Positions 30,081 through 50,488 of a stretch of DNA of 64,000 nucleotides are shown here, piece by piece. Source of the stretch: Armatimonadota bacterium. GTDB taxonomy: Bacteria; Armatimonadota; SYMT01. Each line of letters starts with the position of its first letter. The first letter of the stretch is position 1. Under the pieces are notes generated by a model. The model ran no database searches. It was not told where the DNA came from and saw only the letters and a list, made by a program, of their open reading frames with translations. The stretch spans positions 800,001 to 864,000 of the forward strand of contig JAWLHY010000003.1 of NCBI GenBank assembly GCA_041690135.1, read 5' to 3'. The translations under genes and the position numbers were made by a program.

Positions 30081-30142
30081 GGCGGTCGGATTTGGTGCGT
30101 GGAGCAAGGATTGTGTACTGGGCTTCCGAGGGGCGTGGGGAT

Positions 30143-30551
30143 CCATGTCGGCGGCCGCTCACCTTGACGGCACGCAACGTGGTGCGGGTTCAAGGACCCG
30201 GCTCGGTTTGTCCGTGTGACCTCATCCCCAACCCCTTCTCCGACACAGAGAAGGGGCTATCGGCGTGAACCCAGTACGACGCCGTACTTTCCGCAGAAGC
30301 CACCGGTCACTTTGGCCGACATTCTGATCGCCCACCAAGCCCCCACACGACCGTGATCGTCGAGCCCGTGAAGACCAGAGCCATCCCTGTACTGCGCGAG
30401 GGCTTCCCCCTTCCCTGCGTCGGAGAAGTTTACGCCCCGCGGGAGTGGGGGACCGAGGGGGATGAGGTTACCGCGGTCACCGCAGCCGTTAGTATTGTCG
30501 CACTCCAAGCCTTGCAGCACCCTGGTAGACCGCTGGATGCGTTGGCCACGG
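30143..30551. repeat. Giant-spacer cassette A1
   Basis: REP-like arms CCCTTCTCCGACACAGAGAAGGGG and CCCCCTTCCCTGCGTCGGAGAAGTTTACGCCCCG; followed by a CRISPR repeat at 30552-30580. Confidence 0.8.
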
Positions 30552-30580
30552 CGGTCCACCCCCACGTGCGTGGGGAGTAA

Positions 30581-30901
30581 TGCTTCGTCTCACCCGTGGG
30601 GGCGCAGCTACGTTGCTCCGTCCTCTTGCCCCAGGGTGCTACCGTGGGGTCGCCCCCAGCCCTTGCTTTGGGCCACCGCCCTCCCGCGTGTTAAGCCTCC
30701 GCTCGGCCTTTCACGCTCCCTGCCCGCCAGCGGGCGCCCGTCGCTAGCGGCCGGCTCCGGCGTGCAGCCCAAGACCTGGGCTCCGCGCTGCGGACGGGCG
30801 CTTGGCCTAGTCGTGGCGTGGACGGGCGGCGACCCGACAGCTTCGAGCTATCCCCCCGTCCGGGGAGATCACATGGGCCCGGCGCTGCCGGGCTACGGTT
30901 T
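30581..30901. repeat. Giant-spacer cassette B1
   Basis: Core CTACCGTGGGGTCGCCCCCAGCC...GAGCTATCCCCCCGTCCGGGGAGATCAC...GCCCGGCGCTGCCGGGCT, between repeats at 30552 and 30902. Confidence 0.85.
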
Positions 30902-30930
30902 CCGTTCACCCCCATGTGCGTGGGGACCCA

Positions 30931-31333
30931 TTTCCGTGGTCGTTCACCTTGAGGGCACGCAACGGGGTGCGGGTTCAAGGTCTCGATCCGGTTTGGCCGT
31001 GTGACCTCACCCCAACCCCTCTCCGACGCAGAGAGGGGCTATCGGTGTGTGCCCAAGCCGACGGTGCATTTTCCAGAGATGCCGTCGGCTACGACTGCCG
31101 ACGTCCTGAACTTCCACCAAGCCGCAGCGCAACCGTGACCGTGACCGTGGAGTCTGCGAAGATCAACACCAGTCCTCTACTGCGCGAGGGCTTCCCCCTT
31201 CTCTGCGTCGGAGAAGTTTACGCCCCGCGAGGGTGGGGGACCGAGGGGGATGAGGTTACCGCGGTCACCGCACTGGTGGACGATGACGTGCCAGCGCCTT
31301 CAGAATCCGGGTGGAACGCTGGTTGTCGTGCCG
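30931..31333. repeat. Giant-spacer cassette A2
   Basis: Closely similar to 48020-48461; between degenerate repeats at 30902 and 31334. Confidence 0.85.
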
Positions 31334-31362
31334 CAGTTCATCCCCACGTACTTGGGGACAGT

Positions 31363-31683
31363 TCGCGACTCCCGGGTTGAAGCGTAGGCATAGCCACTTT
31401 AGGTTGGTCCGCTCCCACTACCACTATCATGGGGTCGCCCCCAGCCCTTGCCTTGGGCCGCCGCCCTCACGCGTGTTGGGCCTGCGCTCGCCCTTTCACG
31501 CGCCACCCCTCGGGGGTCCCCGGCGCTAACGGGCGGCTTCGGCGTGCAGCCCAGGACCTGGGCTCCGTGCTGCGACCGGGCACTGGAACCACGCCGGGCG
31601 TGGACGGGCGGCGACCCGGCGTCTTCGAGCTATCCCCCCGTCCGGGGAGATCACAAGGGCCCGGCGTTGCCGGGCTTTGGTTT
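31363..31683. repeat. Giant-spacer cassette B2
   Basis: Same B core; between degenerate repeats at 31334 and 31684. Confidence 0.85.
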
Positions 31684-34457
31684 CCGTCCATCCCCACGTG
31701 CGTGGGGACAACTGGGCTCTGCTGGAAGCGTTCGCTGAGACGCCCGGTCCACCGCCACGTGCGTGGGGAAAACATCGGCTGCCGAGATGATGATCTCCAT
31801 GTGTGCGGTCCACCCCCACGTGCGTGGGGATAAGAGCGCCTTCGGGAGTTGGCGCGCTCCGGCGAGCGGTTCACCCCCACGTGCGTGGGGACAAGGCCGT
31901 TGCGGATAAGGCCCGTGTCCAGGCCCACGGTTCACCCCCACGTGCGTGGGGACAAGGACGGTAACACCGAGGGTGAGGCGTACGACGACGGTTCACCCCC
32001 ACGTGCGTGGGGACAAGGCTGTGAAGATCATCAATGGGCGGGGTGGTGGCGGTTCACCCCCACGTGCGTGGGGACAAGCGGTCTATCTGGTTCACAAGGT
32101 TAAGGAGTCACGGTTCACCCCCACGTGCGTGGGGACAAGCGGGGCGTCGCTCGGGATCACCACCGGGCCCGCGGTTCACCCCCACGTGCGTGGGGACAAG
32201 AAAACTGCCGGGCGGTAAAGCTCCGAGCCCGCCGGTTCACCCCCACGTGCGTGGGGACAAGAGGGCGCGCTCCTGCTCCGGAGTGAGCCGACCCGGTTCA
32301 CCCCCACGTGCGTGGGGACAAGCTCACCCAGCTCCTCAACCGGCCCAATCCCCACGGTTCACCCCCACGTGCGTGGGGACAAGTCAGGATCGGCGCCTTG
32401 TGCTCGCCCTGGAACCGGTTCACCCCCACGTGCGTGGGGACAAGGACTCGTCCAGGTTCGGCACGATCCGGCTGAACGGTTCACCCCCACGTGCGTGGGG
32501 ACAAGCCCCTACGCGAACGCCTGACCTTCGCCCGCGTCGGTTCACCCCCACGTGCGTGGGGACAAGCGCGCCGAGGAGCACCCCTCGCAGGCTCGCCACG
32601 GTTCACCCCCACGTGCGTGGGGACAAGGAGGTGCTGGACGCGATGCGGGAGTATGCGGCCGGTTCACCCCCACGTGCGTGGGGACAAGGAGGACCTCCGC
32701 CTCCGGAAGAACTGCGTCCACGGTTCACCCCCACGTGCGTGGGGACAAGTGCGGTAGTGGAGTGCGTGCGCCGGGGTGGGGCGGTTCACCCCCACGTGCG
32801 TGGGGACAAGACCACCCCCCCTATTGTCCGACAATAGGGCCTCGGTTCACCCCCACGTGCGTGGGGACAAGTCATCTCGTTCCTTCAACAGCCGCTCGGA
32901 GCGCGGTTCACCCCCACGTGCGTGGGGACAAGGAGGAACTTCTCCGCCTGGGAGACGGCCTCCGCGGTTCACCCCCACGTGCGTGGGGACAAGGGTCTCG
33001 GCCCCGTCTTCCGGGTCGCCGTCCCCGGTTCACCCCCACGTGCGTGGGGACAAGTGTGGTGAGTGGTTGCAATCGCGCGGATGGGGCGGTTCACCCCCAC
33101 GTGCGTGGGGACAAGTGCCGGTTGGCATCGGAGAGGGACCGTCCGTCCGGTTCACCCCCACGTGCGTGGGGACAAGAACCCGTCGCCGGGCTCGGTGTTG
33201 CCCAGGTCCGGTTCACCCCCACGTGCGTGGGGACAAGTTTGCACCAGCCGCCTTCCAGTCTTGGCCCAACGGTTCACCCCCACGTGCGTGGGGACAAGCC
33301 TCGTGTCCGTCCGGGCAGGCCTGGAATTATCGGTTCACCCCCACGTGCGTGGGGACAAGTAATAGTGCTTTCGGCAACGTCTCCGTTAATCAGGTTCACC
33401 CCCACGTGCGTGGGGACAAGTGCTCGAAGTTGAGGACCCCCAGGTCCACCGTCGGTTCACCCCCACGTGCGTGGGGACAAGCTATCTCCCGTTCAAAAGG
33501 AACGGCCGGCCCACGGTTCACCCCCACGTGCGTGGGGACAAGGTCCGGTATCAACGCCTGCGCGAGGACCCCACCGGTTCACCCCCACGTGCGTGGGGAC
33601 AAGATCCCATCCAGTGCTGTCTGCACCCGTCGGGCCGGTTCACCCCCACGTGCGTGGGGACAAGCCGGCGGCATTCCTCGGCGGCGAACGTTTCGGCGGT
33701 TCACCCCCACGTGCGTGGGGACAAGCGGCAAGACCGGCACATCAGTGCCTTACCGGTCGGTTCACCCCCACGTGCGTGGGGACAAGATCCTGAACGAAAA
33801 GGCGTTGCGGACCCGCGCCGGTTCACCCCCACGTGCGTGGGGACAAGCCGTTTGATGTTGCCCAGCAGGTTCACCCCGGCGGTTCACCCCCACGTGCGTG
33901 GGGACAAGTTGATCTTGCGGTCGCGGATCTCGGCTTCCCACGGTTCACCCCCACGTGCGTGGGGACAAGCCGTTTGATGTTGCCCAGCAGGTTCACCCCG
34001 GCGGTTCACCCCCACGTGCGTGGGGACAAGAACTGCCGCGCTTTAAGGATGATCTCCTTCTTCGGTTCACCCCCACGTGCGTGGGGACAAGAGTCGAAGA
34101 ACGGGGTCTTGGTGCCCTGCTCCCGGTTCACCCCCACGTGCGTGGGGACAAGAACTGCCGCGCTTTAAGGATGATCTCCTTCTTCGGTTCACCCCCACGT
34201 GCGTGGGGACAAGAGTCGAAGAACGGGGTCTTGGTGCCCTGCTCCCGGTTCACCCCCACGTGCGTGGGGACAAGAACTGCCGCGCTTTAAGGATGATCTC
34301 CTTCTTCGGTTCACCCCCACGTGCGTGGGGACAAGGATCAGCAGCGCCGCAATCGCCGTCACCTTCGCGGTTCACCCCCACGTGCGTGGGGACAAGCTCT
34401 GGGGCCTGAAGCGCAGGGGGCGCCGTGTCGGTTCACCCCCACGTGCGTGGGGACAAG
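31684..34457 (-). CRISPR. Type I-E CRISPR array 1, 46 repeats and 45 spacers of 32 bp
   Basis: 29-bp repeat CTTGTCCCCACGCACGTGGGGGTGAACCG (minus strand), exact 61-bp period; degenerate copies at the left end, leader at the right. Confidence 0.98.
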
Positions 34458-34508
34458 AGCAAACTTAGCGTTTGCTGGAACTGGCCAATGGGCGCTGCGG
34501 TGTAGGAA

Positions 34509-34973
34509 TCAGGTATCGGTTTCTTCGCCTGCGGATCCGGTTCCTTCCGGGAGGGGCGGTCCCTCTTCGGGAACGGCTGTCGCCACCGGTGCGGGTGCTG
34601 AGTCGTCTTCAACCGCGCCCGTTCCCGGTGGCTTGTCGGGTTTTTTGGCGGTTTTCCAGGCCGGGTCGTAGAGGTAGGGGACGCGGACCAGCGACAGGCC
34701 CTCCAGGTCGAGGACCTCGCGGCTGGGGTCGCCGTACTTGCGGAAGGTGAAGCCCTGCTCGGTGCGGGCGCCGTACACCATCAGCGCGCCGGGGCGCTTG
34801 TCGGGATCCTGGACCTTCGTCTTCTCACAGCTCTCGCAGACCATGGTCCAGAGCCGGTCGCGCACGAGAGCGCTCATGCGGCCGACGAACACGCCGGTCC
34901 GCGGCTCGATCATCCACCGGGAGAGCTCGCCCCGGAGCTTCACCGGGACCTTTTCAAGGATCATCACTACCAT
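34509..34973 (-). CDS. cas2: Type I-E Cas2 with a C-terminal low-complexity extension
   Basis: MVVMILEKVPVKLRGELSRWMIEPRTGVFVG...VRDRLW...EQGF...DLEGLSLV. Confidence 0.95.
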   Translation of the reverse strand: MVVMILEKVPVKLRGELSRWMIEPRTGVFVGRMSALVRDRLWTMVCESCEKTKVQDPDKRPGALMVYGARTEQGFTFRKYGDPSREVLDLEGLSLVRVPYLYDPAWKTAKKPDKPPGTGAVEDDSAPAPVATAVPEEGPPLPEGTGSAGEETDT

Positions 34974-35000
34974 CTCGTCACCGTACCCTTCCGAAGGGGA

Positions 35001-35221
35001 TTCACCGCAGAGGCGCAGAGAACGCGGAGCCCACGCTGAGGGGAAAAGAAAGGCGGAGGGGAGAACGGGGAGATAGCTGATAACCGGCCAGACAGTTCGG
35101 CTGAGACTTCGGGCGTCCAGCGCGGAAACTTGAAGCCGGAACAGGATCTTCTCTCATCCAACGGAACTAGCCATTTCTTCCCTCTGCGCACTCTCAGCGT
35201 CCTCAGCGTCTCTGCGGTGAA
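35001..35221. repeat. Insert between cas1 and cas2 bounded by imperfect inverted repeats built of 9-mer units
   Basis: TTCACCGCAGAGGCGCAGAGAACGCGGAG ... CTCAGCGTCCTCAGCGTCTCTGCGGTGAA. Confidence 0.7.
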
Positions 35222-36172
35222 CTATTCTTCGCCGGACATGTCTTCGCTGTAGTTGAGGCCGCCGGCGACGCCCTGGGGAGTGCCGGGCTCCCAGAGGTAG
35301 CCGGGGGCGGCGGGGTCTACGTCGCCTTCGAAGAGGTTTTCGATCGGCTCGGGCTTGAGGCCGAGGACGCGGGGGAGGTCGTCGGCGAGGCGGTCGAGGA
35401 GGCGGTGCTCGCGGAAGAGATCGCGGCAGGCGAGGCGGACGGAACGCTCCAGGGGACGGGTGTCCTGGGCGACGGTCCGGAACGCTAGGGGGATGGTGAT
35501 CACCGTTTTGTAGAGGTCGGCGATGTCGTAGACGAAGGAGAGCTGCTTGCCGGTGTGGATAAAGCCGAGCGCCGGGCTGAGGCCCATGGAGAGGATGGCG
35601 GCGTGGCAGAGGCCGTAGAGGCAGGAGTTGGCCGCGGAGAGGGCGCGGTTGACGGGATCCGCGGCGTTCCAGCTTCCGCGGTCGTAGTGGCGGCCGTGCC
35701 AGGGAACGCCGGTTTCCTGCGAGGCGCGCGCGTAAGTGTCGCGGACGCGCCGCCCCTCCCAGCCGCGGAGCTGCTCCAGGTTGAGGTTAGGGTCCACCTC
35801 TTCCTGGAAGCGCATCTGGTACATCCGCCGGGCGACCTCCAGGCGGAGCGTGTCGTCGCTGACGAGCCGGGCCTGGTGGAGCAGCCAGGAGGCGCTGCGC
35901 GTGCCGCCGGTCCCGTGCGCGTAGAACCGCACGCCCTGTTCCCCGCACCAGACGACGAGGCAGTTGCTTTCGGCCAGCACGGCCATGGCGGCGTGGGTGA
36001 CGCGGGTGCCGGGGCCGAGCATGAGGATGGCCAGGGAAGCGGCGGGGACGCGCGTTTCGCCGACCTGGTCGTACAGGGCGATGGCGGAGTCTTTGCGGTC
36101 GACGCAGCAGTGCTCGACGTAGAGGTACGAGAGGCTGTCGCGGAGCTTGGGTAGGGTGCGAAGGTCGTCCAT
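35222..36172 (-). CDS. cas1: Type I-E Cas1
   Basis: SYLYVEH, LMLGPGTRVTHAA, LRGWEGRRVR, LGFIHTGKQLSFVYDIADLYK. Confidence 0.97.
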   Translation of the reverse strand: MDDLRTLPKLRDSLSYLYVEHCCVDRKDSAIALYDQVGETRVPAASLAILMLGPGTRVTHAAMAVLAESNCLVVWCGEQGVRFYAHGTGGTRSASWLLHQARLVSDDTLRLEVARRMYQMRFQEEVDPNLNLEQLRGWEGRRVRDTYARASQETGVPWHGRHYDRGSWNAADPVNRALSAANSCLYGLCHAAILSMGLSPALGFIHTGKQLSFVYDIADLYKTVITIPLAFRTVAQDTRPLERSVRLACRDLFREHRLLDRLADDLPRVLGLKPEPIENLFEGDVDPAAPGYLWEPGTPQGVAGGLNYSEDMSGEE

Positions 36173-36258
36173 TGTAGCTATCCCTTTACCGAACGGGTTG
36201 GCCCGCGGAATTCGCGGAAAGCGGGCCTTGGTTCACCCCCACGGTGCGTGGGGATTAT

Positions 36259-36563
36259 TGCGTCCACTCATTCGTGGTGGCGAAGCTACCATGGTCCTAC
36301 TCATTGCCTGGAGGTGCTACCGTGGGGTCGCCCCCAGCCCTTGCCTTGGGCCGCCGCCCTCCCGCGGAATCAGCCTCCGCTCGGCCTTTCACGCTCGTCG
36401 CTCGCTAGCGGCCGGCTCCGGCGTGCTCACCAGGCCCTGTGTTCCGCGCCGCTGACGGGCGCTGCAACCATTCCGGGCGTAGACGGGCGGCGCCCCGGCG
36501 TCTTCGAGCTATCCCCCCGTCCGGGGAGATCACAAGGGCCCGGCTCTGCCGGGCTCTGGTTGC
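36259..36563. repeat. Giant-spacer cassette B3
   Basis: B core, with a flank homologous to B1; between degenerate repeats at 36229 and 36564. Confidence 0.85.
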
Positions 36564-36592
36564 CGGGCACCCCCCACATGCGTGGGGACAAG

Positions 36593-36918
36593 GTATCCGG
36601 CCCGACCTTTCGCGACTCCCGGGTTGAGGAGTTGGCGAAGCTTCGTGGATGTTGTGCTGTTTCCCACTACCACTACCGTGGGGTCGCCCCCAGCCCTTGC
36701 ATTGGGCCGCCACCCTCCCGCGGAAGAAGCCTCCGCTCGGCCTTTCACGCTCGTCCCTCGCTAGCGGCCGGCTCCGGCGTGCAGCCCAAGACCTGGGCGC
36801 CGCGCTGCTGCCGGGCACTGGAACCAGTCGATGCGTGGACGGGCGGCGCCCCGGCGTCTTCGAGCTATCCCCCCGTCCGGGGAGATCACATAGGCCCGGC
36901 GCTGCCGGGCTTCGTTTT
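36593..36918. repeat. Giant-spacer cassette B4
   Basis: B core, with flank TTCGCGACTCCCGGGTTGA...CCCACTACCACTA shared with B2. Confidence 0.85.
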
Positions 36919-36984
36919 CCGTCCCCCCCACGTGCGTGGGGGGGACGGAAAACGAAGCCCGCCCTCGGTCTCCAGGTCCGGCCG

Positions 36985-38907
36985 CGGTCCACCCCCACGT
37001 GCGTGGGGAAAACTCGACCCGCTTCGCGCCGGCCAGCTCGCTCGTCGGTCCACCCCCACGTGCGTGGGGAAAACGCCCGCCATGGCTACCGCATAGTAGG
37101 GAGCATCGGTCCACCCCCACGTGCGTGGGGAAAACGCGCACACGCTCTCCCGGAATGCCCGCGACAACGGTCCACCCCCACGTGCGTGGGGAAAACTGGG
37201 CAGCCTTATCGCCCCCTTTCTCTAGCTGCGGTCCACCCCCACGTGCGTGGGGAAAACTTCTGCTTCCTGCTGGCGCTTCCGCTTCTCGGCTGGTCCACCC
37301 CCACGTGCGTGGGGAAAACTTCGCCAGAGAGGCGGGCCTGGGCCTGACGGGCGGTCCACCCCCACGTGCGTGGGGAAAACGCGGCGACGTCGTTCTCTTC
37401 CTTCGCGGCCTTCGGTCCACCCCCACGTGTGTGGGGAAAACCCGGGGGGCTGGTCGGTGTAGACCTTCACCAGCGGTCCACCCCCACGTGCGTGGGGAAA
37501 ACACCACCTGTGGGCGCGGGGGACCGAACCGCGACGGTCCACCCCCACGTGCGTGGGGAAAACTAGGGCACCGTGGAGGCCGGCCACTCCTTCGCCGGTC
37601 CACCCCCACGTGCGTGGGGAAAACGTCAAACGGCGCAAGGCATTGTTTCGCCATGTAGGTCCACCCCCACGTGCGTGGGGAAAACGCCCGCCCCCGCGCT
37701 AGTGGACGGCGGGGCTGCGGTCCACCCCCACGTGCGTGGGGAAAACGTGGTCGGCGCTGGCGCGCAGCACCCGCCGGGCGGTCCACCCCCACGTGCGTGG
37801 GGAAAACGCTGCTTCCTCGATGGTCTCATACAGCCCCAGCGGTCCACCCCCACGTGCGTGGGGAAAACGGCGCGGGCGAGGGCGGCGCGGGCACGCTGTC
37901 CGGTCCACCCCCACGTGCGTGGGGAAAACAGCAACATAGGACATCAGTAGCTCCCCTGGAACGGTCCACCCCCACGTGCGTGGGGAAAACTGGACTGCTG
38001 AAAGAGGACGGGACGCTCTGGGCGGTCCACCCCCACGTGCGTGGGGAAAACGCCAGCCGCGCCCACCTCCCGCCAGCCCGCCGCCGGTCCACCCCCACGT
38101 GCGTGGGGAAAACTCGTCTACTACTACGCTCAGCACCCGCTCCAGCGGTCCACCCCCACGTGCGTGGGGAAAACATGAGCCCTGCCCTGTGGCGGGCGGC
38201 GGATACCGGTCCACCCCCACGTGCGTGGGGAAAACTCATGACCTCTTCCGGGTCCTGCGGCATGCCGCGGTCCACCCCCACGTGCGTGGGGAAAACATCC
38301 CCACTTTCCAAGGATGTGGAGTTTGGGGCGGTCCACCCCCACGTGCGTGGGGAAAACACATCCGCCTCACTGATCGTCCGTCCGCGGACCGGTCCACCCC
38401 CACGTGCGTGGGGAAAACGTGACGCTGGACGCGGATGCCTGGGAAGTGGACGGTCCACCCCCACGTGCGTGGGGAAAACACGATAGCCTCACCTTCGCTC
38501 ATATCCTCTTCCGGTCCACCCCCACGTGCGTGGGGAAAACGCCGGTAAGCCCGCGACAGCGGTTCATACTGGCCGGTCCACCCCCACGTGCGTGGGGAAA
38601 ACGTCCGGCCGAATTCAGCGCCCATCGGCATCTCCGGTCCACCCCCACGTGCGTGGGGAAAACAACCGCGCCCACACTTCCGCCGCCACCTTCGACGGTC
38701 CACCCCCACGTGCGTGGGGAAAACCGCCCAGCGCTAGATAGGCGGCCACGATGAGGCGGTCCACCCCCACGTGCGTGGGGAAAACCTGGTACCACTTGTC
38801 CGGGTTCTCGCTCTCCTCGGTCCACCCCCACGTGCGTGGGGAAAACTCCAGAACTGCCCCCGTGGTACTTAACGAACGCGGTCCACCCCCACGTGCGTGG
38901 GGAAAAC
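36985..38907 (-). CRISPR. Type I-E CRISPR array 2, 32 repeats, located between cas6e and cas1
   Basis: Repeat GTTTTCCCCACGCACGTGGGGGTGGACCG (minus strand); 32-33 bp spacers. Confidence 0.98.
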
Positions 38908-38948
38908 AGCAAACTTAGATTAGCGCTTGCATGGAGGTTCGTGTGCTC

Positions 38949-40381: not shown

Positions 40382-41546
40382 GGAGGGCTACCTCTTCCAG
40401 TCGCGCGCGGAGAGTATTCAGGTCCTTGACCCGCTCCACGCCGGCGATGGAGAAGTCCGGGTGCTCGGGCGCAAACAACCAGCGGGACGTGGCCTGGAGA
40501 TTGAAGCCATCGGTGAGGGCCTGGACGTGGCGGCCGAGCTTTTCCAGCGATGCGGTTACCAGATCCTTCGCACCCTGGCGGGCGGGGTCCACGAAGGCAT
40601 TGGCATAACTTACGGGCTGGCAATGCGGGCGAACTTCCACCAGGATGGCCGCCGGAAGCTGGTGCGCCGCGAAGCTGTTCTGCTTGCCCGAAGGAGTGGT
40701 GAGGGCCGACGCGGCAACCAGGGCGGACACGGCCCGTGCTGCCAGGGCGTGGGCTGCCTGTTCTTCTCCTTCGGCCGGCTCGCGGCGGAACGGTCGTTTA
40801 CCCGTTAGACTATCCCGCAGGCCCTTCACGTCCACGGAGAAGTACTTGTAAAAGCAGGCCGAGTTGAACTCCACGTCGCCGAGCATGTCGGCGCCGGAGT
40901 CGGCTTCTTTCTCCGCATCACCCAGGTCCTGGAGGTCGTCCACCGCCGTGAAGTAGTCGAACTCGTGATCCACCTTGTGCGTGGAGAGGGCGTGAGCCAC
41001 CTGCGCGGACGCTTCCACGTCGCGGAAGGCTGCCGAAGTCGTCATGCGCCCGAAGAGTGCCACGTCGACCGTGAGCTCACGAAAGCCCTTCTGTTCCGCC
41101 TGGGCCTGAAGATCCTTCGCCGGCACCTTCTCCAGTTGCGCAGCCGTTTTTCCCTGCGCCGCTTCTCGCAGCACGGTGGTGACCGCCGCGATGTCCTCCT
41201 CGGTGAGAAACATCGTCTGGGCCGTTTCCAACTGGTCCCGCTCTTTGCCATCCTTCGTGCCGAAGCCGGACACCTTCTTGGCGGCTACCACCGCCAGTTC
41301 GGGAGCCAGACCTTCCGCCAGGAGGCGGTCGCGAACCAACTCGGGAAGGCGGCGGGTCCGCGTGGCTACCTGGCCGTCCATCGCCTCGCGGAACACGGTG
41401 GAACGGCGGATGCTGCGCTTGAGGCACTGGCTGGATATGCGCGCGCGCTTGATCCCTCCGAACATGCACTCTTTCGGGCTGCCCGTATCGTCCCGGTTGA
41501 GGTTGGCGGGCGAATGGTTCTGGATGATGTGAATCTCTACGAGCAT
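40374..41546 (-). CDS. cas7e: Cas7e/Cse4/CasC
   Basis: ANLNRDDTGSPK, RARISSQCLKR, VALFGRM, DYFTAVDD, PSGKQNSFA. Confidence 0.97.
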   Translation of the reverse strand: MLVEIHIIQNHSPANLNRDDTGSPKECMFGGIKRARISSQCLKRSIRRSTVFREAMDGQVATRTRRLPELVRDRLLAEGLAPELAVVAAKKVSGFGTKDGKERDQLETAQTMFLTEEDIAAVTTVLREAAQGKTAAQLEKVPAKDLQAQAEQKGFRELTVDVALFGRMTTSAAFRDVEASAQVAHALSTHKVDHEFDYFTAVDDLQDLGDAEKEADSGADMLGDVEFNSACFYKYFSVDVKGLRDSLTGKRPFRREPAEGEEQAAHALAARAVSALVAASALTTPSGKQNSFAAHQLPAAILVEVRPHCQPVSYANAFVDPARQGAKDLVTASLEKLGRHVQALTDGFNLQATSRWLFAPEHPDFSIAGVERVKDLNTLRARLEEVALHG

Positions 41547-41585
41547 CGTGATCTCTCCTTAGCCGGTGGGAAAACAAACGGGAAT

Positions 41586-42191
41586 TCAGGGTTCGTTGCG
41601 CTCGGGATCGCCGGAGCCGGCAGCCGGGTGCGGGGCGGCGGAAGAAAGGGGCGGAGCGTAGAAGGCAGCGGCCCACTGCTTCTGCACGCGCTTCTCCGGA
41701 TCTCCCCAGCGCTTGAGATCGTGCAGAAGCTGCGGCCAGGCGATGCCGACCTCTTTGGACGCGGCCAGGCGAACCAGTTGGCGGAGGCGGAAAGCCAACT
41801 CTCCGCCTCCGGGCTTCCGGCCTTCCACCAGATCGAACTGGGCATCGAGCAACACGTTGAAGCGTCGTTCCACCCCTTCGCGGTTGGCAAGGCTGCTCAG
41901 GATGGCGAGGGTGTGGCCCAGGTTCTTACCTCGCGCGGGGTGGCGGTTGTGGGGCATCAGCGTAGCGATGAGGAAGTGAATTTCCGCGTCTCTGCCGCGC
42001 TGGTTCTCTTCCAGCAGGCGGTAGAACCAGGAGACGCCGCGCGCCTCCGCTATCGTGCGTCCCGCGTTCCGGCCCAGGGCCGAACGGTAGGCGCGGTCGA
42101 GGTCGCGGACGCGCGCGACAAAGTCCTGGTCCGGATCGCGGTCCTCCACGGGGGGATGCGCCCGGGATTCCGTTGCCGTATCGGTGGTCAC
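41586..42191 (-). CDS. cse2: Cse2/CasB (Cas11)
   Basis: Operon position; VERRFNVLLDA...LRQLVRL...WPQLLHDLKRW...VQKQWAAAFY; GTG start inferred from the RBS. Confidence 0.9.
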   Translation of the reverse strand: MTTDTATESRAHPPVEDRDPDQDFVARVRDLDRAYRSALGRNAGRTIAEARGVSWFYRLLEENQRGRDAEIHFLIATLMPHNRHPARGKNLGHTLAILSSLANREGVERRFNVLLDAQFDLVEGRKPGGGELAFRLRQLVRLAASKEVGIAWPQLLHDLKRWGDPEKRVQKQWAAAFYAPPLSSAAPHPAAGSGDPERNEP

Positions 42192-42193
42192 TC

Positions 42194-43801
42194 TCAATCT
42201 CCCTTCTGCTGGACGGGACGGCCGGAGGCTTTCTTGCCTTTGCCGGAGGGGTTGGCGGGCTGGGGATGGAAAACGCCATACAGCCGACGCCGAAAGTGGG
42301 AACGCGCGAGGACCTGCCGGCGGAGTGCATCTCCGTCCGTGTCGAGCGGTCCCACGGCTGCTTCGAACGCAGCCTGGCTTTCTGCTTCCACCGCCTCCCG
42401 CCAGCGCTCCAGCAAGGGGGTTGCGGCACCAAGCTCGGCGCTCGGATCCAGCGCGGCCAACTCGCGTAACAGCCGATCATAATGCGGCCGCAGCGCCGAC
42501 CAGTAGCCGCTCTCGGCGCGGGCCGCCAACGCGCCAAAGGGGTCCCGGCTGCCTTTCCCGTCGCGGGGGTAAGCCTGGCGGATGGAGCTCCGCAAGGCGT
42601 AAGCCACGGCATCGGCCTGGTCGAGCGCCCGGTCGGCAAAGGTGTGGAAGCTGGTGTTCCAGAGGAGGCGGGTGGGAAGGTTGAGACGCTCCGCCCGCCA
42701 CTCGAACACCTTCATCTTCATGTCCGTCCGCATTCCATAGGCCTGGAGCTGGAGTTCCGGCTGCCGGCCCAACTCGCGGTCGGCGGCCAGGCCGGCAAAC
42801 TGATCCATCACTCGCGGCCGGGCAAAGCGCACCGGGTGCTCGGAGCCGTGGTGCTGCCGCTGACACACCAGCGCGAGTGGACCCGTATCTCGCCAGAGCT
42901 CGCGACCTTCGCGTAACCGGAGCGGCGTGGGGCCTTTCTCCGTAATGCGGTACGGCACGTTGGGATCGTCCCACCAATCGAAGCCGGCGCCGTCTCCCGC
43001 GGAGAAGAGCATCCGGCTAACCCGCATTTCCGTGGGACGGCCGGTGAGGGCACATTCCCCCGGCCCTTCCGGCAGCAAACGCACCCGCCGGGGCCGCCAG
43101 GTCAGGGCTTCCAGCAGATCCGCACTCTCTCGACGCTCGCCACCCGGATCGCGGTCGCTGCGCCACGCGGGCACACCGAGGGCCCGGACGTGCGGCTGCG
43201 GCAGCACACAAGCGTTGAGCAGGAGCGTTTGGAGCAGGGTATTGCCGCGCACCAACACGTACCACGGCGGCGCGCCATTGATGGACGGAGAGAGGCCTGC
43301 ACCGCCGGCGGTCATAAATGGCGCCAGGGTAGTCAAAAGGCGAGCTGCTACCGCCGCATCCACGCCGAACTCGGTCTCCCGGCGGCGATGAAAGTGGAAG
43401 GCGTTCGTTCCGGAAGGAAGCGAGGGAAGCAGCGCTGCCAGCGGCTTCGGCTTCTCGCCGGCCATATCGGGCGTTTGCAGAAACGGGCGCCCCGGGTGGA
43501 AGAGATCAAAGCGATCGCCCCACCGCTCGAAGTAGGCGTCGACCTTCGCCGCATCGAGGCTTCCCGCCTGCAAAAGCTCGCCCAGATCTAACGTATCTTC
43601 CGGCCGAAAGATGTCGAGAACCAGAGCGATGAGCAGGCGGTAGAGGCCGAACTCGGAAAGCGGAAGGGGGTCCCGGATCTCGCGGAGCCGGTGAGCCTGA
43701 AGAAGCACCTCCCGCAGCCCCAGCAAGTCCGGCTTTCGTTCCGGATCGTCCCACACCACCGGGATCCACTTCCGGGATCGCAGATCAAACGTGGGCGTCA
43801 T
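42194..43801 (-). CDS. cse1: Cse1/CasA (Cas8e)
   Basis: FDL..WIPV, RFDLFHPGRPFLQ, GNTLLQTLLLN, LTWRPRRVRL, RELWRD. Confidence 0.93.
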   Translation of the reverse strand: MTPTFDLRSRKWIPVVWDDPERKPDLLGLREVLLQAHRLREIRDPLPLSEFGLYRLLIALVLDIFRPEDTLDLGELLQAGSLDAAKVDAYFERWGDRFDLFHPGRPFLQTPDMAGEKPKPLAALLPSLPSGTNAFHFHRRRETEFGVDAAVAARLLTTLAPFMTAGGAGLSPSINGAPPWYVLVRGNTLLQTLLLNACVLPQPHVRALGVPAWRSDRDPGGERRESADLLEALTWRPRRVRLLPEGPGECALTGRPTEMRVSRMLFSAGDGAGFDWWDDPNVPYRITEKGPTPLRLREGRELWRDTGPLALVCQRQHHGSEHPVRFARPRVMDQFAGLAADRELGRQPELQLQAYGMRTDMKMKVFEWRAERLNLPTRLLWNTSFHTFADRALDQADAVAYALRSSIRQAYPRDGKGSRDPFGALAARAESGYWSALRPHYDRLLRELAALDPSAELGAATPLLERWREAVEAESQAAFEAAVGPLDTDGDALRRQVLARSHFRRRLYGVFHPQPANPSGKGKKASGRPVQQKGD

Positions 43802-46454
43802 CGTATGTTTCCTTCTTTTCAACCAGGCGCACAACACCCAGCTCCGGATCGTCGCGCAAGATCACGGAACGTCCCTGGGCGTCCCGGCCCCGCCACTCCC
43901 GACCGTGCATCCGCACGCTCTGGTGGTGGCGCAGCCAGGCAGGTGAGGCTTCGAGCGGGGGAAAGGGCACTTCCGCCGTGAGATCGCGCAACCACCAGGC
44001 GGGGACCTTCACCTGGCGGCGGAGCAGCCCGCGGAGGTCGGAACGCTTCGGAGCTGTTTCACTCTCCAGCAGCGCCAGGTGGGCGGGGTCCTCCAGGAGC
44101 AAGAGTTGCAGGGTGGGATCGCCCAGCCGCGTTTGCGCGTGGAAATAGCCGGTGGGGCCGCCTTCTTCCCCTTCCCACACCGCTTCCACCATCTCCGCGA
44201 GCACGAAAGTCTTCGCCCGTGGGGCGGCAACCAGGTGCGTGCATGCCTCGGCCGCCGCTTTGCGCCCCAACTCCCGCCGAATCTCGGCGGCTTCCTGCAG
44301 ATCCGGCTCCGATACCACGCCGGCAGGAACCGGCGCGCCATCGTAGCAGGCCGAGATGAGAGGGCGAAAATCCTGCGGCAGACGGAATTCGGAAAGGCCG
44401 GCGAGTAAGGCGTGGGTGCGCAGAAGCGGCTCCTGTGCCTGATAGACGTAAGCGGTGGGCCCAAACTCCAGGGTGCTGTCTTCGGGAAGGAGAACGTGGA
44501 GGACGGCTTCGAGGCCGGTGGGGCGTACGCCGCGCTCGTGCCGGTGGAGACGGCCACATCGCTGCAGCAGCAGGTCTACCGGCGCAATCTGGCTGATGAA
44601 CACGTCGAAGTCCACATCCAGACTCTGTTCGACAACCTGGGTGGCCACCAGGACCGCGCGTGCCGGCCGGGGTGGTCTCCCGTCTTTCCCGGCGTCTTTC
44701 CCAAACAGCCCCACGACCTGGTCTTCCCGATCCTGCCGGTCTCCGGCGGTAAACCGCGCGTGGAACAGAAAGAGGTCGGTATCGGCCAATTGCGGTTCCT
44801 GGCGGACAAGATCCTGGAGCGCGCGGAAGATGGCCTGCGCCTGCCCTACCGTATTGGCAAGCACGCAAGCACACCCGCCGTCCTCAACCGCCTTCAGCGC
44901 CAGGTGCGCGGTGCCCACCGCATCCAGAAGCAGGCCGGGATGCCGCTTCACCAGGATGCGGCGGTCTCGCTCCGGGTCGGCCGGCACCGGTACCGTGCGC
45001 GGGGAGCCGTGCAGGGGGACGTGAGTGAGTAAGGGATAAGCTGCTAGGGGCTCGACTGGCAGCTCCGCACCGTACGCCTGTGCGAGCCGCTGGCGCTGCC
45101 CGGCAGACAGGGTGGCGGAAAGCAGGATGACCGGAACGCCCAGGCAGCGGCACCAGTGCAGGAGACGCTCCAGCAAGACGGTCATGTACTCGTCGTAGGC
45201 ATGGACCTCATCCACGATCAGCACCTTCCGTGACAGCCCCAGCAGCCGCAGGAAGCCATGCTTCACATTGAGCACCGCCATGAGCGCCTGATCGATGGTG
45301 CCCACCCCTTCCGGCGCCAGCAAAGCGCGCTTGGTGTTGCGGAACCAATCCAGCGACAGAGAGCGCTCGCTGGTCCACCCCCTTGCGCCGGCTTCGTCGT
45401 AGGTCTGTGCAGGGGTTGAAGGCGTGACGGCGTCCACCAGCCAGGCCATGCCGTGCACCAGGCGGGGAGCCGGCATTTCCGGCCAGCGCTGCTGGAGAAA
45501 CGTGCTGTAACGGGCATGGATCTGATTGCTGGTGGCGGCGGTGGGGAGTGCCAGGTAAGCGCCCCCGAGGGCCTGCTCCTGTCGCCGCCATTCTTCCGCG
45601 ACGTAGACGGCTCCCTCGGTCTTCCCTTCACCCATGGGCGCTTCCAGGATGAGCAGGCCGGGCGTCAAGCGTCCGGCGCGCGCTTCCGCTTCCAGAGCCC
45701 GCTGCGACGGCCGGAGCCGGGTGCACTCCGGCCAAACGTGTGAGAAGGGGAAGGGCTCTTCGGCGGGATTCACTCCGAGAGGTGCGAGCCCCAAAGAAGC
45801 GACGGCACGCTGCGCTTCCCTGCGAGCTGCCGCAAAATACTCGTGAGGTGAAAGCGAGCGAGCGAGGGAAGGATAGGCATAGAGCTCGTGATTCGAGGCA
45901 ATCCAGTCCGAAAGCACGATCAGCCCGGACAGCCGGAGGCCGGCTACACTGGCATCCGGAAACTGCTCCAGGACAAACGGCTCCAGGGCCAACACGTCCG
46001 CGACCATGGCGGCCATTGCCCGGCGTACGGCCTGCCACTCCTCTTGCCTGGGTCCCGTGTCCGGCAGGGGGGTAGGAGCGAAGTTCCCGTGGTGCCCACT
46101 CACCGCCTGACGGATCACCCTGGCAGCTCGGGTGCCCCACCCGCGGTCGTCCCGCAGATGCGTGAACAACCAGTCCGCGGACCGCTCTTCATGCCGGAAG
46201 GGCTGCGCATCGGTGGGGATGTCGAAACCCTGGTCCCGGAGGGATACGGCAAGCGCCTCATCCTTGTTCTGAAAGTACCGGTCGGCCTTGCCGAGATCGT
46301 GCAGCGCCGCAACCCACAAGAGCCACGACACCGGAAGAGGCGAAACTCCCCCAAACCGCGGAACCAGCGCCTCGCAAACCGCCGCCACGTCCAGCAGGTG
46401 GCACCACAGCGGGTGGTACGGATCCGATTTCGCCCAGAGCTGACGCCAGTCCAT
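43785..46454 (-). CDS. cas3: Cas3 HD nuclease-helicase
   Basis: WAKS..HLLDV, LHDLGKA, GHHG, APMGEGKTE, DEVHAYD, LSAT, ATQVVEQSLDVDFD, QRCGRLHRH. Confidence 0.97.
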   Translation of the reverse strand: MDWRQLWAKSDPYHPLWCHLLDVAAVCEALVPRFGGVSPLPVSWLLWVAALHDLGKADRYFQNKDEALAVSLRDQGFDIPTDAQPFRHEERSADWLFTHLRDDRGWGTRAARVIRQAVSGHHGNFAPTPLPDTGPRQEEWQAVRRAMAAMVADVLALEPFVLEQFPDASVAGLRLSGLIVLSDWIASNHELYAYPSLARSLSPHEYFAAARREAQRAVASLGLAPLGVNPAEEPFPFSHVWPECTRLRPSQRALEAEARAGRLTPGLLILEAPMGEGKTEGAVYVAEEWRRQEQALGGAYLALPTAATSNQIHARYSTFLQQRWPEMPAPRLVHGMAWLVDAVTPSTPAQTYDEAGARGWTSERSLSLDWFRNTKRALLAPEGVGTIDQALMAVLNVKHGFLRLLGLSRKVLIVDEVHAYDEYMTVLLERLLHWCRCLGVPVILLSATLSAGQRQRLAQAYGAELPVEPLAAYPLLTHVPLHGSPRTVPVPADPERDRRILVKRHPGLLLDAVGTAHLALKAVEDGGCACVLANTVGQAQAIFRALQDLVRQEPQLADTDLFLFHARFTAGDRQDREDQVVGLFGKDAGKDGRPPRPARAVLVATQVVEQSLDVDFDVFISQIAPVDLLLQRCGRLHRHERGVRPTGLEAVLHVLLPEDSTLEFGPTAYVYQAQEPLLRTHALLAGLSEFRLPQDFRPLISACYDGAPVPAGVVSEPDLQEAAEIRRELGRKAAAEACTHLVAAPRAKTFVLAEMVEAVWEGEEGGPTGYFHAQTRLGDPTLQLLLLEDPAHLALLESETAPKRSDLRGLLRRQVKVPAWWLRDLTAEVPFPPLEASPAWLRHHQSVRMHGREWRGRDAQGRSVILRDDPELGVVRLVEKKETYDDAHV

Positions 46455-46521
46455 TTCTACTCCCGGAACCCCGCCTACTCGATCAGTGATTGATACTCGA
46501 AAATCCGTTTGCATCCCATAT

Positions 46522-46551
46522 AGCATACATTGCGCGCCATTGCCAGCAATG
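46522..46551 (-). promoter_or_regulatory. Candidate cas3 promoter with an overlapping inverted repeat
   Basis: TTGCTG-N16-TATGCT on the minus strand in an AT-richer patch; CATTGC-CA-GCAATG overlaps the -35 box. Confidence 0.3.
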
Positions 46552-46749
46552 CCTGCAAGCACCCGCCAACTTTTTCGCGTTCTTCGCTCTTTCGCGTTTT
46601 CTCCGGCAGCCTCGGCTACGCCCCTCCGACCGGCCGTTCAGGATTCCGGATTGACCCCTTTTGCACCCATCAGCCCCGTCCGCGTTCTCCTGCAGTCTCT
46701 CCAGGATTCCAGACCGGTTCCATTCGCGACCATTCGCCCCATTCGCGGA

Positions 46750-47754
46750 TCAGGGGTCCCCATACCGCTCCGCGGCGCGGCGGTGCTCTTCGCGGACCCG
46801 TTCCCGCAGCGCCTCGGGGGCTTCCACCACCACGTGGCTCCCGTAGCCGAGGACCCAGCGGGTGAGGTCTCCCTCTCCGGCGACGGTGAGCCGCAGCCGG
46901 ACCTCGCCCCCCGGCAGCTCCTCCAACACCTGTGTGGGGTGCCACGTCCGCTCGTGGATCCAGCGGGCCTGGTAGGCGTCGAAGCGGAGGACCACCTCCT
47001 GCGGCGTGCTGCCGTGCTCCGTCCGGAAGGTGTGCTTCCGGTAAGTCTCGCGGGAAAGCTCCGGGCGCGGGCGGAACCCGGTGTCCAGGACCGTCCACTC
47101 GCGCACCCGGGAGAGCATGAACACGCGGTCGGCATCGCGCCACTCGTCCCAGGCCACGCACATCCAGTCGCCGGCGACATTGGTGAGGAAGTGGGGATGG
47201 ATCACCCGCTCCCCCAACTCGTCGCGACCCGCCGTGTAGTAGAGGATCCGCAGTTTCCGGTGCTCCCGGATCGCCCGGCGGAAGTCGGCCATCAGGGAAG
47301 CCGGCACCGCCACGCTGGTGGCCCCGGCGAACTCGTAGGTATCGGCCACGTCCTCCATGGCCACCTCCACCCCTTCCGGCAGGTGGCGCTGGAGCTTCTC
47401 GATGGCGGTCCGCAGCTCCGCCTCCAGGGGCGATCCCAGGTACTGGCGCGTGACCTCCCGGGCCAGGACCAGGGCCAGCAGCTCTCCCTCCCGGAAGAAG
47501 ACCGCGGGGAGGGCGTAAGTCGGCTCGGTGTAGACGTAGCCTTTCCGCCGGCGGTCGTACCGGATGGGCGCCTCCAGCGAGTCGCGGAGGTAGTCCAGGG
47601 TATCGAAGACGGTCCGCCGGGCGATCCCGAATGCTTCCTGGATGGCGCGGACGTTGGGGCTGCCGCCCTGCCGGATCTGGCGGTCGATCCAGACGACGCG
47701 GGCCCACATCCCGGCGGGGTCGCCGGGCTGACGTTGGGGGGTGCGAGGTTCCAT
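46750..47754 (-). CDS. wHTH-WYL-WCX transcriptional regulator
   Basis: N-terminal HTH (RRTVFDTLDYLRD..API.YD), ERVIHP...WMCVAWD..R..RVFMLSRV, RWVLGYGSHVVVEAPEALR. Confidence 0.92.
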   Translation of the reverse strand: MEPRTPQRQPGDPAGMWARVVWIDRQIRQGGSPNVRAIQEAFGIARRTVFDTLDYLRDSLEAPIRYDRRRKGYVYTEPTYALPAVFFREGELLALVLAREVTRQYLGSPLEAELRTAIEKLQRHLPEGVEVAMEDVADTYEFAGATSVAVPASLMADFRRAIREHRKLRILYYTAGRDELGERVIHPHFLTNVAGDWMCVAWDEWRDADRVFMLSRVREWTVLDTGFRPRPELSRETYRKHTFRTEHGSTPQEVVLRFDAYQARWIHERTWHPTQVLEELPGGEVRLRLTVAGEGDLTRWVLGYGSHVVVEAPEALRERVREEHRRAAERYGDP

Positions 47755-48019
47755 TGAGGAAAGGATAGCGAAGGCAGGGTGCGGTGAGGGTGCACTCTGA
47801 AAAGTCTTCCGTGAGCGTGGCCGGGGAAGGGGATTGCCCGCGGAACACGCGAGCTTGCCCGTATGGGATGGACGCGGAAGGTGGACGGAAAAGGGATGGA
47901 AGGAATTGTTCCGAGACGAGCGAGGGTGGGCTTAATGACTTCTTAAGCACTGTGCTGCGTTTGGCTCACCCCATATGCGCGCGAATCTTGAATCCCTCAA
48001 TGCGGTGCTAACGGAGCTC

Positions 48020-48461
48020 AGTGATCGTTCACCCTGACTGCGCACGGCGTGGTGCGAACACAAAAGCTTGATCCGGTTTGGCCGTGTAACCTCATCCCCG
48101 CCACCCAGAGGGTGCCCCCCACCCAAAGGGTGCCCCCCACCCAAAGGGTGCCCGGTCCGACGCAGAGAGGGGCTATCGGTGTGTGCCCAATCCGGCGGTG
48201 CAATTTCCAGAGATGCCGTCGGCTACGACTGCCGACGTCCTGAACTTCCACCAAGCCTCAGCGCAACCGTGACCGTGGAGTCTGCGAAGACCAACACCAT
48301 TCCTCTACTGCGCGAGGGCTTCCCCCTTCTCTGCGTCGGAGAAGTTTACGCCCCGCGGGGGTGGGGGACCGAGGGGGATGAGGTTACTACGGGCGCCGCA
48401 GCCGTGGATGATAATGGACCAGCGCCTTGTAGAATCCAGGTGGAACGCTGGATGTCGTGTT
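48020..48461. repeat. Giant-spacer cassette A3, with an internal 18-bp x3 tandem repeat
   Basis: Closely similar to A2; CCCCCCACCCAAAGGGTG units at about 48097-48150; followed by a repeat at 48462. Confidence 0.85.
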
Positions 48462-48490
48462 CGGTCCACCCCCACGTGCGTGGGTACCCA

Positions 48491-48894
48491 TTTCCGTGGC
48501 CGTTCACCTCGACGGCACACAACGGGGTGCGGATTACAAGGTCTCGGTCCGGTTTGGCCGTGGAATCTCACCCCAACCCCTCTCCGACGCAGAGAGGGGC
48601 TATCGGCTCGGACACAGTCCGGCGGTACACACACCGGAGATACCGTGAGCTACGACCGCCGAAGTTCTGATCGCCCATCGCTTCGCCCATTCGCGAGCGT
48701 GACCACGCCTCCTGCAAAAGACAAGATTCACTCCGTTCTGAACACGGGCTTCCCCCTTCTCTGTGTCGGAGAAGTTTACGCCCCGCGGGGGTGGGGGATT
48801 GAGGGGGATGAGGTTACCACGGCCACCGAAGCCATTAGCGGTGTCGCACTCCAAGCCTTCCCGACCCCTGGTAAACCGCTGGTTGTCGTGTCGG
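48491..48894. repeat. Giant-spacer cassette A4
   Basis: Shares TGTCGCACTCCAAGCCTT and TTCTGATCGCCCA with A1; between repeats at 48462 and 48895. Confidence 0.85.
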
Positions 48895-50155
48895 CAGTCT
48901 ACCCCCACGTGCGTGGGGACAAGGGCCACGCCCGCTTCCACCTTCACCACGTAGATCGGTTCACCCCCACGTGCGTGGGGACAAGGGCCACGCCCGCTTC
49001 CACCTTCACCACGTAGATCGGTTCACCCCCACGTGCGTGGGGACAACGCGATCTCATCCATCGTCGCTTCAGCCACCAGCGGTTCACCCCCACGTGCGTG
49101 GGGACAACAGGACCGGAACATCCAGCGTGCGGGCCAATACCGGTTCATCCCCACGTGCGTGGGGACAAGCACGCTTCCCAGGCGGCCTTCCGTTCCTCAA
49201 CCGGTTCACCCCCACGTGCGTGGGGACAAGCTACTCGGATAGCAACGTGACGCTGGGCCGCTTCGGTTCACCCCCACGTGCGTGGGGACAAGTCAGGCGA
49301 TCCTCAGGTGGGAGCCGCGCTCCACGGTTCACCCCCACGTGCGTGGGGACAAGTCCGGAATCCCACTCTTCCGGCGCCCCATGGTCCGGTTCACCCCCAC
49401 GTGCGTGGGGACAAGCTGTGCGACCACCTGCGCACCGCCGTATTCATCGGTTCACCCCCACGTGCGTGGGGACAAGAGTGGGTCCAACAGGCTCGTCTCC
49501 GCGCTCACCGGTTCACCCCCACGTGCGTGGGGACAAGCTGGCGCTCACGCTGGAGGTATAGGACATCAACTGGTTCACCCCCACGTGCGTGGGGACAAGG
49601 CGTAGGAGAGGGGCTGGAAGCCCGGCCACGTCTTGCCGGTTCACCCCCACGTGCGTGGGGACAAGGCAAACCGCCCGCGAACCGCCGCCGCCGTCCGCGG
49701 TTCACCCCCACGTGCGTGGGGACAAGATGACGTTCCTCGCGACGATCCATCAGGGACTCGGTTCACCCCCACGTGCGTGGGGACAAGCCCCCTGCCCTGC
49801 GGTTCGGGGTCGGTGTGGTACGGTTCACCCCCACGTGCGTGGGGACAAGCCTGCGGCCTGCAGAGCTGTTTTGGGCAGATACGGTTCACCCCCACGTGCG
49901 TGGGGACAAGGCGATGGCCTCCCGTGGGGAGTTGCAAAACTCCGGTTCACCCCCACGTGCGTGGGGACAAGGAGATGAGATCCGTAGAGAATACCGTGAC
50001 CTACGGTTCACCCCCACGTGCGTGGGGACAAGTTCTCGCCGTTCAGCGCGTATCCGCTCGCGTCCGGTTCACCCCCACGTGCGTGGGGACAAGGGTACCG
50101 GGTTGTCTTCCCTTCCCCCCGCTTTACGGTTCACCCCCACGTGCGTGGGGACAAG
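48895..50155 (-). CRISPR. Type I-E CRISPR array 3, 21 repeats
   Basis: Same repeat as array 1; spacers of 32, 33 and one of 37 bp. Confidence 0.97.
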
Positions 50156-50488
50156 AGCAAACTTAGCGTTTGCAGGTTCCGGCGGGCGGAAGCGGCGGGA
50201 GAGTAGTCGAAATCTCCTTCGGCAGCGGCCAGCCCGGCACCTGCCGGGAGAAATAGTTGTCGTCCGCCCGCAGAACCAGGCCTTCCAGGAACTTGAATCC
50301 TACCGGAGCACCCGCGAACCGCCGCGCTCGGACCTTCTTCCCCTTCTTCTGTTCCCCTTCTTCCGTTCCCCTTCTTCCGCCCACCTCTTCCGCTGCCCTT
50401 CTAACGCCCCCCCTTCTTCCGTTCCCTTTTCCGCGCCTTTCCGCGTGTTCCGCGGGCAATAACCCGTCCCCCTCTTCCGCAGTCGTGT

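Follow-up and report, generated by a model that had tools for sequence, protein, structure and literature searches.

Copies of two dispersed host repeat families occupy spacer positions at the trailer ends of three type I-E CRISPR arrays in an Armatimonadota genome

Mobile elements insert into CRISPR arrays, a familiar example being IS6110 in the direct repeat (DR) locus of M. tuberculosis. Repetitive extragenic palindromic (REP) elements and REPINs are accompanied by RAYT (Y1) transposases, and CreTA and other repeat-flanked RNAs that are not spacers carry short, spacer-like guides and are situated in cas operons with a toxin RNA. The present study concerns a type I-E CRISPR-Cas locus of an Armatimonadota bacterium (GenBank assembly GCA_041690135.1; 9.1 Mb, 65% G+C, 25 contigs), contained in a stretch of 64,000 nucleotides that is referred to here as the window (contig JAWLHY010000003.1, designated C3; C3:800001-864000). 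The leader-distal end of each of its three arrays carries units of two kinds, A and B, which are 306-467 bp in length and are separated by full-length degenerate repeats. It is apparent that A and B are copies of two dispersed host repeat families, and that the units are not a CRISPR-specific system.

According to the CRISPRDetect paper (PMC4869251), repeats and spacers are lost through small or large insertions, deletions or recombination. Degenerate trailer repeats and repeat-mediated changes of this sort are seen in the window also, where leader-distal repeats are worn and recombination duplicates or deletes units; unlike known worn trailers, however, these array ends hold host-family copies, two to four per array and common to all three arrays. 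An insertion of the IS6110 type is similar in that foreign or repeated DNA interrupts an array, but here there is no transposase, terminal inverted repeat or target duplication, and the inserts are bounded by whole repeats with which they were amplified. The resemblance to REP elements and REPINs lies in the arms of A, which are short GC-rich palindromes dispersed at 37 loci, and in the frequent inverted pairs of B; B is, however, a far larger, multi-helix fold of 230-290 nt, and neither A nor B has a linked Y1 gene. CreTA likewise has repeat-like hairpins around something other than an ordinary spacer, whereas here the inserts are multi-copy and long, with no specificity for CRISPR. There are precedents for worn trailer repeats, for recombination between repeats and for insertions into arrays (PMC4869251, and the other examples given above). 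What is new is the derivation of the inserts from multi-copy host families, the fact that they were amplified along with the repeats and are shared by three sister arrays, and the family of folded elements to which B belongs. Neither long cassettes bounded by repeats nor the B motif were found described in a literature search, which did not extend to supplementary files.

All three arrays have a palindromic 29-nt repeat, spacers of approximately 32 nt, a 61-nt period and a leader at one end, as is usual for type I-E; together they contain 102 repeat sites and 97 spacers. Array 1 (31684-34457) and array 3 (48895-50155) are followed by the leader motif AGCAAACTTAG at 34458 and 50156, respectively, and array 2 (36918-38907), whose repeat is a variant ending in ...GGGGAAAAC, also has this motif directly to the right of its right-most repeat. 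AGCAAACTTAG lies to the right, the worn repeats to the left, and the direction of the cas genes is leftward; it follows that the minus strand is the one on which the arrays are read, with the trailers at their left ends. The first-pass annotation, which was made from the sequence alone, had accordingly placed the units correctly at the trailers. In its minus-strand orientation the repeat presumably resembles known type I-E repeats.

The units and the repeats between them, all assigned to the minus strand, were delimited as follows, with repeat identity scored against the 29-nt consensus. At the end of array 1, from left to right, are A1 (30143-30551), the outermost cassette; R1 (30552-30580; 25/29, hairpin intact); B1 (30581-30901; folded core 30639-30890); R2 (30902-30930; 24/29, one stem change); A2 (30931-31333); R3 (31334-31362; 23/29, one loop and one stem change); B2 (31363-31683; core 31423-31672); and the boundary repeat of the array (31684-31712; 25/29). 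Successive repeats there start 350, 432, 350 and then 61 nt apart, and the A-R-B-R module is in tandem with a period of 782-788 bp. At array 2 are Rx (36229-36258), which has a 1-nt insertion in its loop; B3 (36259-36563; core 36317-36552), directly upstream of cas1; Ry (36564-36592; 24/29); B4 (36593-36917; core 36672-36908); and the boundary repeat (36918-36946; 20/29). At array 3 are A3 (47991-48461), the outer boundary of which is uncertain; Rq (48462-48490; 24/29); A4 (48491-48894); and the boundary repeat (48895-48923; 26/29). Faint pieces of repeat lie outside A1, at 30094-30108 (p~0.03) and, by eye, at 30128-30142, and outside A3 at 47962-47971 (p~0.07). A3 alone has an 18-nt unit, CCCCCCACCCAAAGGGTG, repeated 3.2 times in tandem (48097-48153), which accounts for its extra length. 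The degenerate repeats reported in the first-pass annotation are thus all present, with 23-25 matches in 29 positions and, in the copy at 36229, the insertion just mentioned.

BLAST comparison of the eight units bore out both the proposed order (A1-R-B1-R-A2-R-B2, B3-R-B4 and A3-R-A4) and the claim that units are common to several arrays, the identities ranging from 75.8 to 90.6% among units of kind A (A2-A3, 90.6% over 310 nt; A1-A2, 80.7% over 358; A2-A4, 78.9% over 342; A1-A4, 75.8% over 414) and lying in the same range for B (B3-B4, 89.5% over 239 nt; B1-B2, 83.7% over 264; B1-B3, 79.1% over 321; B2-B4, 80.2% over 324). The pairing of subtypes across arrays proposed at the same time held only in part. 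The pair A2 and A3 is clear. A4 is approximately as close to A2 as to its supposed partner A1, with which only its last 60 nt or so are held in common, and B1 pairs with B3, and B2 with B4, only through the 60-90 nt next to the left repeat, B3 and B4 being closest to each other in the core.

The junctions between units and repeats are also shared. R2 and Rq, which precede A2 and A4, both read GGGxACCCATTTCCGTGG and both end in ...ACCCATTTCCGTGG, while R1 and Rx, which precede B1 and B3, both read GGGGA(G/T)TA(A/T)TGC. The repeats following A2 and A4 both begin with CAGT, and all four B units have an end hairpin, approximately 9 nt, and then a repeat with C in place of G as its second base. These variants, common to several arrays, indicate that units and repeats were copied as blocks. 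The junction of A2 with B2 (31279-31510) was found at 100% identity in one 232-nt contig of a soil metagenome that yielded only short, low-depth pieces; this match is not independent, as the metagenome may be the source sample.

In neither length nor content do the units correspond to spacers. Their 306-467 bp compare with the 32-33 nt or so set by the integrase, and in place of unique foreign sequence they are copies of host families, of which this genome has 18 (B) and 41 (A-related) loci.

A profile built from the four A units gave 54 nhmmer matches in 41 genome loci, only three of which are the array ends. One further long copy, of 274 nt (C3:779587-779860), follows a gene read by eye as DinB-like and precedes a strong hairpin. 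The remaining 37 loci are short (52-359 bp), REP-like and distributed over 15 contigs; since they correspond to two segments of A that are oppositely oriented, A can be described as two inverted REP-like palindromes around a core of approximately 130 nt, with approximately 45 nt more at one end. When 41 genomes were searched, among which this is the only member of its genus, the long form of A was confined to this genome, and the short palindrome alone was found in two others (five sites in one, one site in the other).

Iterated nhmmer searches identified 18 copies of B in the genome, four at the arrays and 14 elsewhere, on C2 (six copies) and on C5, C6, C7 and C11 (two each). The element is folded and about 230-290 nt long. 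Inverted pairs, of which there are four here and at least six in another genome, have approximately 105-250 bp between the aligned bodies; their members are two subtypes, approximately 68% alike, and each resembles copies of its own subtype elsewhere more closely than it does its partner. The genes beside B copies are unrelated to one another (a sugar kinase, cytochrome-like proteins, peptidases, an AbiJ-like protein, a sulfatase and lipases). Between two like-oriented copies (C2:549204-552640) lies a 2.9-kb segment that encodes a protein with an AbiJ N-terminal domain (PF18860). A role as 5' leader of neighbouring genes was rejected, the ratio of opposite to same orientation being 22/17 on one side and 21/18 on the other with a crude gene call. 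An omega RNA of TnpB or IscB was rejected also: PF07282 (TnpB) had no match in the genome, and none of the 10 open reading frames flanking B was TnpB- or IscB-like by Pfam, no genome search having been aimed at IscB.

Outside this genome, B was sought by BLAST and by exact pattern, both of which miss distant copies. BLAST placed it in three of the 41 genomes including this one, the others being a second genus of the same family and a genome with one very weak match. A scan for the exact motif in one genome per species yielded 17 loci, 13 from a metagenome-assembled genome (MAG) labelled Armatimonadota, three from two other MAG records, in which B forms tandem arrays of three and five copies, and one that is marginal. 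These 17 loci hold 33 nhmmer matches to B, and no repeat-like site was seen beside B in them (stretches of 4.5-8 kb). Metagenome contigs, scanned in the same way, yielded 18 loci, eight of which hold 10 B matches, with no array beside B in those eight. In one metagenome contig, B adjoins a block of tandem GC-rich palindromic repeats of approximately 120 nt, so that other repeat families are neighbours of B outside this genome as well; a periodic repeat of 61 nt next to that copy is not CRISPR.

The first-pass annotation had raised the question of whether copies of A and B occur only next to CRISPR repeats, in the genome and in relatives. They do not: 14 of the 18 B copies and most A loci lie elsewhere. 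Sites matching the repeat core with no more than two mismatches cluster only at the three arrays, and ten others in the genome are lone near-matches, none of them near B. No CRISPR repeat remnants were detected in the 20 flanks of 10 non-CRISPR B copies (all p>0.1); a resemblance in the flank of the copy at C2:552 kb was not significant (p~0.14). Fourteen loci from other genomes, comprising 10 repeat-pattern matches (three or fewer mismatches; some arrays, some lone near-matches) and four picked around repeat sites (among these, one lone repeat and one palindrome), contained no match to A or B. The absence of A and B from these 14 loci, and of repeat remnants beside the ten B copies, makes the association of A and B with CRISPR a peculiarity of this locus. 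The annotation had further proposed that many genome-wide copies with no adjacent CRISPR repeat, together with a lack of transcription and of cleavage, would reduce the units to ordinary repeat debris; the first half of this, the many copies, is what was found.

The explanation that we favour, and hold to be somewhat probable, is that a few founding insertions into old spacer positions were followed by amplification and sorting through repeat-mediated recombination. A and B would have come to lie in spacer positions between the old, leader-distal repeats of an ancestral type I-E array, through a small number of founding events, perhaps only one; in the case of B the likeliest event is the insertion of an element of approximately 330 bp into a spacer. 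B2 and B4 are homologous to the nearest outside copy (C2:552 kb) over the stretch between approximately TCGCGACTCCC and the end hairpin. In B2 the homology fills the space between the repeats almost exactly, and in B4 it leaves 17-18 nt on one side and approximately 9 nt on the other, near to one 32-nt spacer, which fits insertion of an element into a spacer and is compatible also with capture mediated by the integrase. Modules of repeat and unit would then have been amplified in tandem and carried along as one array became three, and homologous recombination between repeats would have trimmed them differently in each; array 2, for example, could be derived from array 1 through loss of A units. 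Membership of the two families, their dispersal, the lack of linkage to CRISPR elsewhere, the shared junctions and the activity of repeat-mediated duplication are observed directly, and the founding mechanism and this order of events are what we infer. On this account the units would be passengers and not guides, with any cutting of a read-through transcript by Cas6e a by-product.

Repeat-mediated duplication is active in the regular part of the arrays, as is apparent from four duplicated spacers among the 97. The duplications are of spacer-repeat units in tandem: one spacer is present three times near the leader of array 1 (within 33819-34459), and at the trailer of array 3 there are two identical spacers (within 48901-49046). 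Of the two possibilities put forward in the first-pass annotation, the one that fits best with the dispersed families, the shared junctions and these duplications is that of small elements inserting at CRISPR repeats or recombining through them; that annotation is thus supported in part. Both A and B have the many dispersed copies of a miniature inverted-repeat transposable element or an insertion sequence.

Several observations weigh against this explanation. No terminal inverted repeats, target-site duplication or linked transposase accompany the copies, which share the folded body only; no mobilising gene was recognized beside any B copy when the neighbouring open reading frames were inspected, and the genome has no match to PF07282. 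None of its nine Y1 loci carries A or B, other repeats being found at seven of them. For the order in array 3 (A2-like, then A1-like), an ancestor with three or more A units is required. Spacer positions are filled almost exactly, with full-length repeats on both sides of each unit, and integration by Cas1-Cas2 would give the same. The hairpins of the flanking repeats are well kept (three changes in 108 stem positions and three in 36 loop positions, counted by hand in nine repeats), and B may be co-directional with the array; both of these would fit a function too.

That B is a conserved folded element, of RNA or of single-stranded DNA, in which base pairs are kept by compensatory change, is supported by 43 aligned copies from this genome and other records, for which the multi-helix fold has 47 pairs. 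Paired cells amounted to 88.3%, as against 74.0% in shuffles (none of 500 reached the observed value), and double-sided changes to 281 cells as against 95; slid controls were 36-44% paired. The covariation, an analysis of which the first-pass annotation had suggested, is strong. B has no match in Rfam 15. At Rfam gathering scores the whole window gave no match, and a permissive scan of 29900-31750 gave matches at chance level only (E 0.4-8).

Evidence on the strand that folds points both ways. In favour of the minus strand, covarying pairs, read on the plus strand, include 61 A.C and only 21 G.U cells. With registers optimised, helix P1 has on that strand 530 Watson-Crick, 4 G.U, 20 A.C and 13 other cells, and helix P6 has 343, 0, 7 and 4, respectively; one copy has nine A.C cells and no other mismatch. 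The folding z-score is better on the minus strand in 17 of 23 copies, and the plus strand is C-rich (C 40%, G 31%). In favour of the plus strand are two U.G positions in helix P3 that are nearly invariant, the hairpin with a U-rich tail in which B terminates on that strand, and two inverted pairs in the other genome, whose end hairpins are only approximately 26-30 nt apart, a gap that suits converging terminators better than diverging promoters. From these patterns we consider it fairly likely that the functional strand of B is the minus strand of the window, in the same direction as the CRISPR RNA (crRNA). A role as folded single-stranded DNA would fit the wobble pattern also.

The other possibility put forward in the first-pass annotation is that the arrays serve as a platform for expression and processing: B (and A) would be part of a read-through pre-crRNA, and cutting by Cas6e at the degenerate repeats would free functional long folded RNAs. 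The excess of A.C cells in the two best-covarying helices and the better folding of the minus strand suggest that the folded strand of B is probably co-transcribed with the crRNA, and on that strand each CRISPR-linked B begins 7-9 nt past a repeat, without whatever precedes the other copies. The repeat hairpins are mostly intact: on the minus strand the 6-bp stem is kept in six of the nine flanking repeats, in one of them with an altered loop, and the other three have one stem mismatch each. With stems in this condition the hairpins are plausible Cas6e sites. By hand count, the handle and the other flank are far more altered than the stem; the number of independent events in them is small, because several of the differences are shared junction states. 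The 17/29 matches to the repeat seen inside A and B are near chance for GC-rich hairpins, by a rough estimate without a control. Against such a platform, 14 of the 18 B copies here and all those found elsewhere stand without any repeat, the association with CRISPR is found in this genome only, and the terminator-like end of B and the short gaps between paired copies, which leave too little room for two diverging promoters, argue for the opposite strand. We regard it as unlikely. Its more specific form, in which B would be a new class of folded RNA whose promoter-less copies ride the pre-crRNA and are excised by Cas6e at hairpins that retain the cleavage stem and lack the Cascade handle, seems to us a little less likely again.

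Founding by insertion, as favoured above, is to be compared also with integration by Cas1-Cas2 of grossly oversized spacers from the cell's own DNA, which spacers acquired later would have pushed to the trailer end. The full-length repeats that bound each unit, and the unit ends lying within a few nucleotides of the repeat ends, are what such integration would leave. Type I-E Cas1-Cas2, however, measures prespacers of approximately 33 bp, and the units are 306-467 bp long. A random fragment, moreover, would not match the ends of a dispersed element as B does, with homology to the C2:552 kb copy extending almost from repeat to repeat, and since the shared junctions need one or two events only, there is no sign of recurring capture. 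This origin is accordingly judged rather improbable.

Least probable, in our view, is that A and B are mobile elements aimed specifically at the palindromic CRISPR repeat, in the way that REP palindromes are the targets of some insertion sequences: A does have REP-like hairpins as arms and the genome is rich in REP-type repeats, but no other copy of A or B lies beside a repeat-like hairpin, no Y1 locus carries either, and all CRISPR-linked copies trace to a few shared junctions. The nine Y1 (IS200/RAYT-like) transposase genes are at C11:209659, C1:627841, C2:54557, C1:749332, C9:14121, C23:493, C14:178027, C19:87395 and C1:1172517. Seven of them have their own repeats (35-306 nt) within 1.5 kb on either side, some one-sided or consisting of a single palindrome, and short versions of several of these are dispersed over the genome.

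The CRISPR-Cas system in which the units lie is complete and on the minus strand of the window. Pfam matches, in the order cas3/cse1/cse2/cas7/cas5/cas6e/cas1/cas2, were PF18019/PF22590, PF09481, PF09485, PF09344, PF09704, PF08798, PF01867 and PF09707. The genes from cas3 to cas6e extend from 46562 down to 38949, cas1 is at 35222-36172 and cas2 at 34509-34973, and a WYL-domain regulator, identified by the Pfam scan, is at 46750-47754, all on the minus strand. Read in that direction, the order is array 3, A4, A3, WYL, cas3 to cas6e, array 2, B4, B3, cas1, cas2, array 1, B2, A2, B1, A1. Array 2 lies between cas6e and cas1, so that an array and two B units split cas1-cas2 from the effector genes. 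Sigma-70 and terminator scans of 29900-31800 found no sites. Scans of 36150-37000 showed two terminator-like sites, one after B4 on the plus strand and one at 36967-36953 on the minus strand, and a single promoter-like site, resembling those of sigma-70, which is situated just upstream of cas1 on the minus strand (36283-36254). Self-targeting spacers were rejected, as spacer matches to the genome were partial only (17-23 nt). A tandem repeat, TTCCCCTTCTTCCG, with a 14/27-nt period lies at 50338-50441, approximately 180 bp past the array 3 leader, and tandem repeats of 7-8 nt occur at 25877-25906, 27111-27194 and 29202-29240, left of the CRISPR region, in or next to large reading frames of the minus strand.

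These results indicate that host repeat elements can gather and multiply, in exact spacer positions, at the old end of a CRISPR array, and they document repeat-mediated shuffling between sister arrays. They also caution against taking long 'spacers' for guides. B is a folded element of approximately 250 nt with good support from covariation; several soil lineages carry it, in many copies per genome, and Rfam 15 does not include it. If embedded copies were indeed excised by Cas6e, this would be a natural CRISPR array that delivers non-guide RNA, a cargo matured by the CRISPR nuclease.

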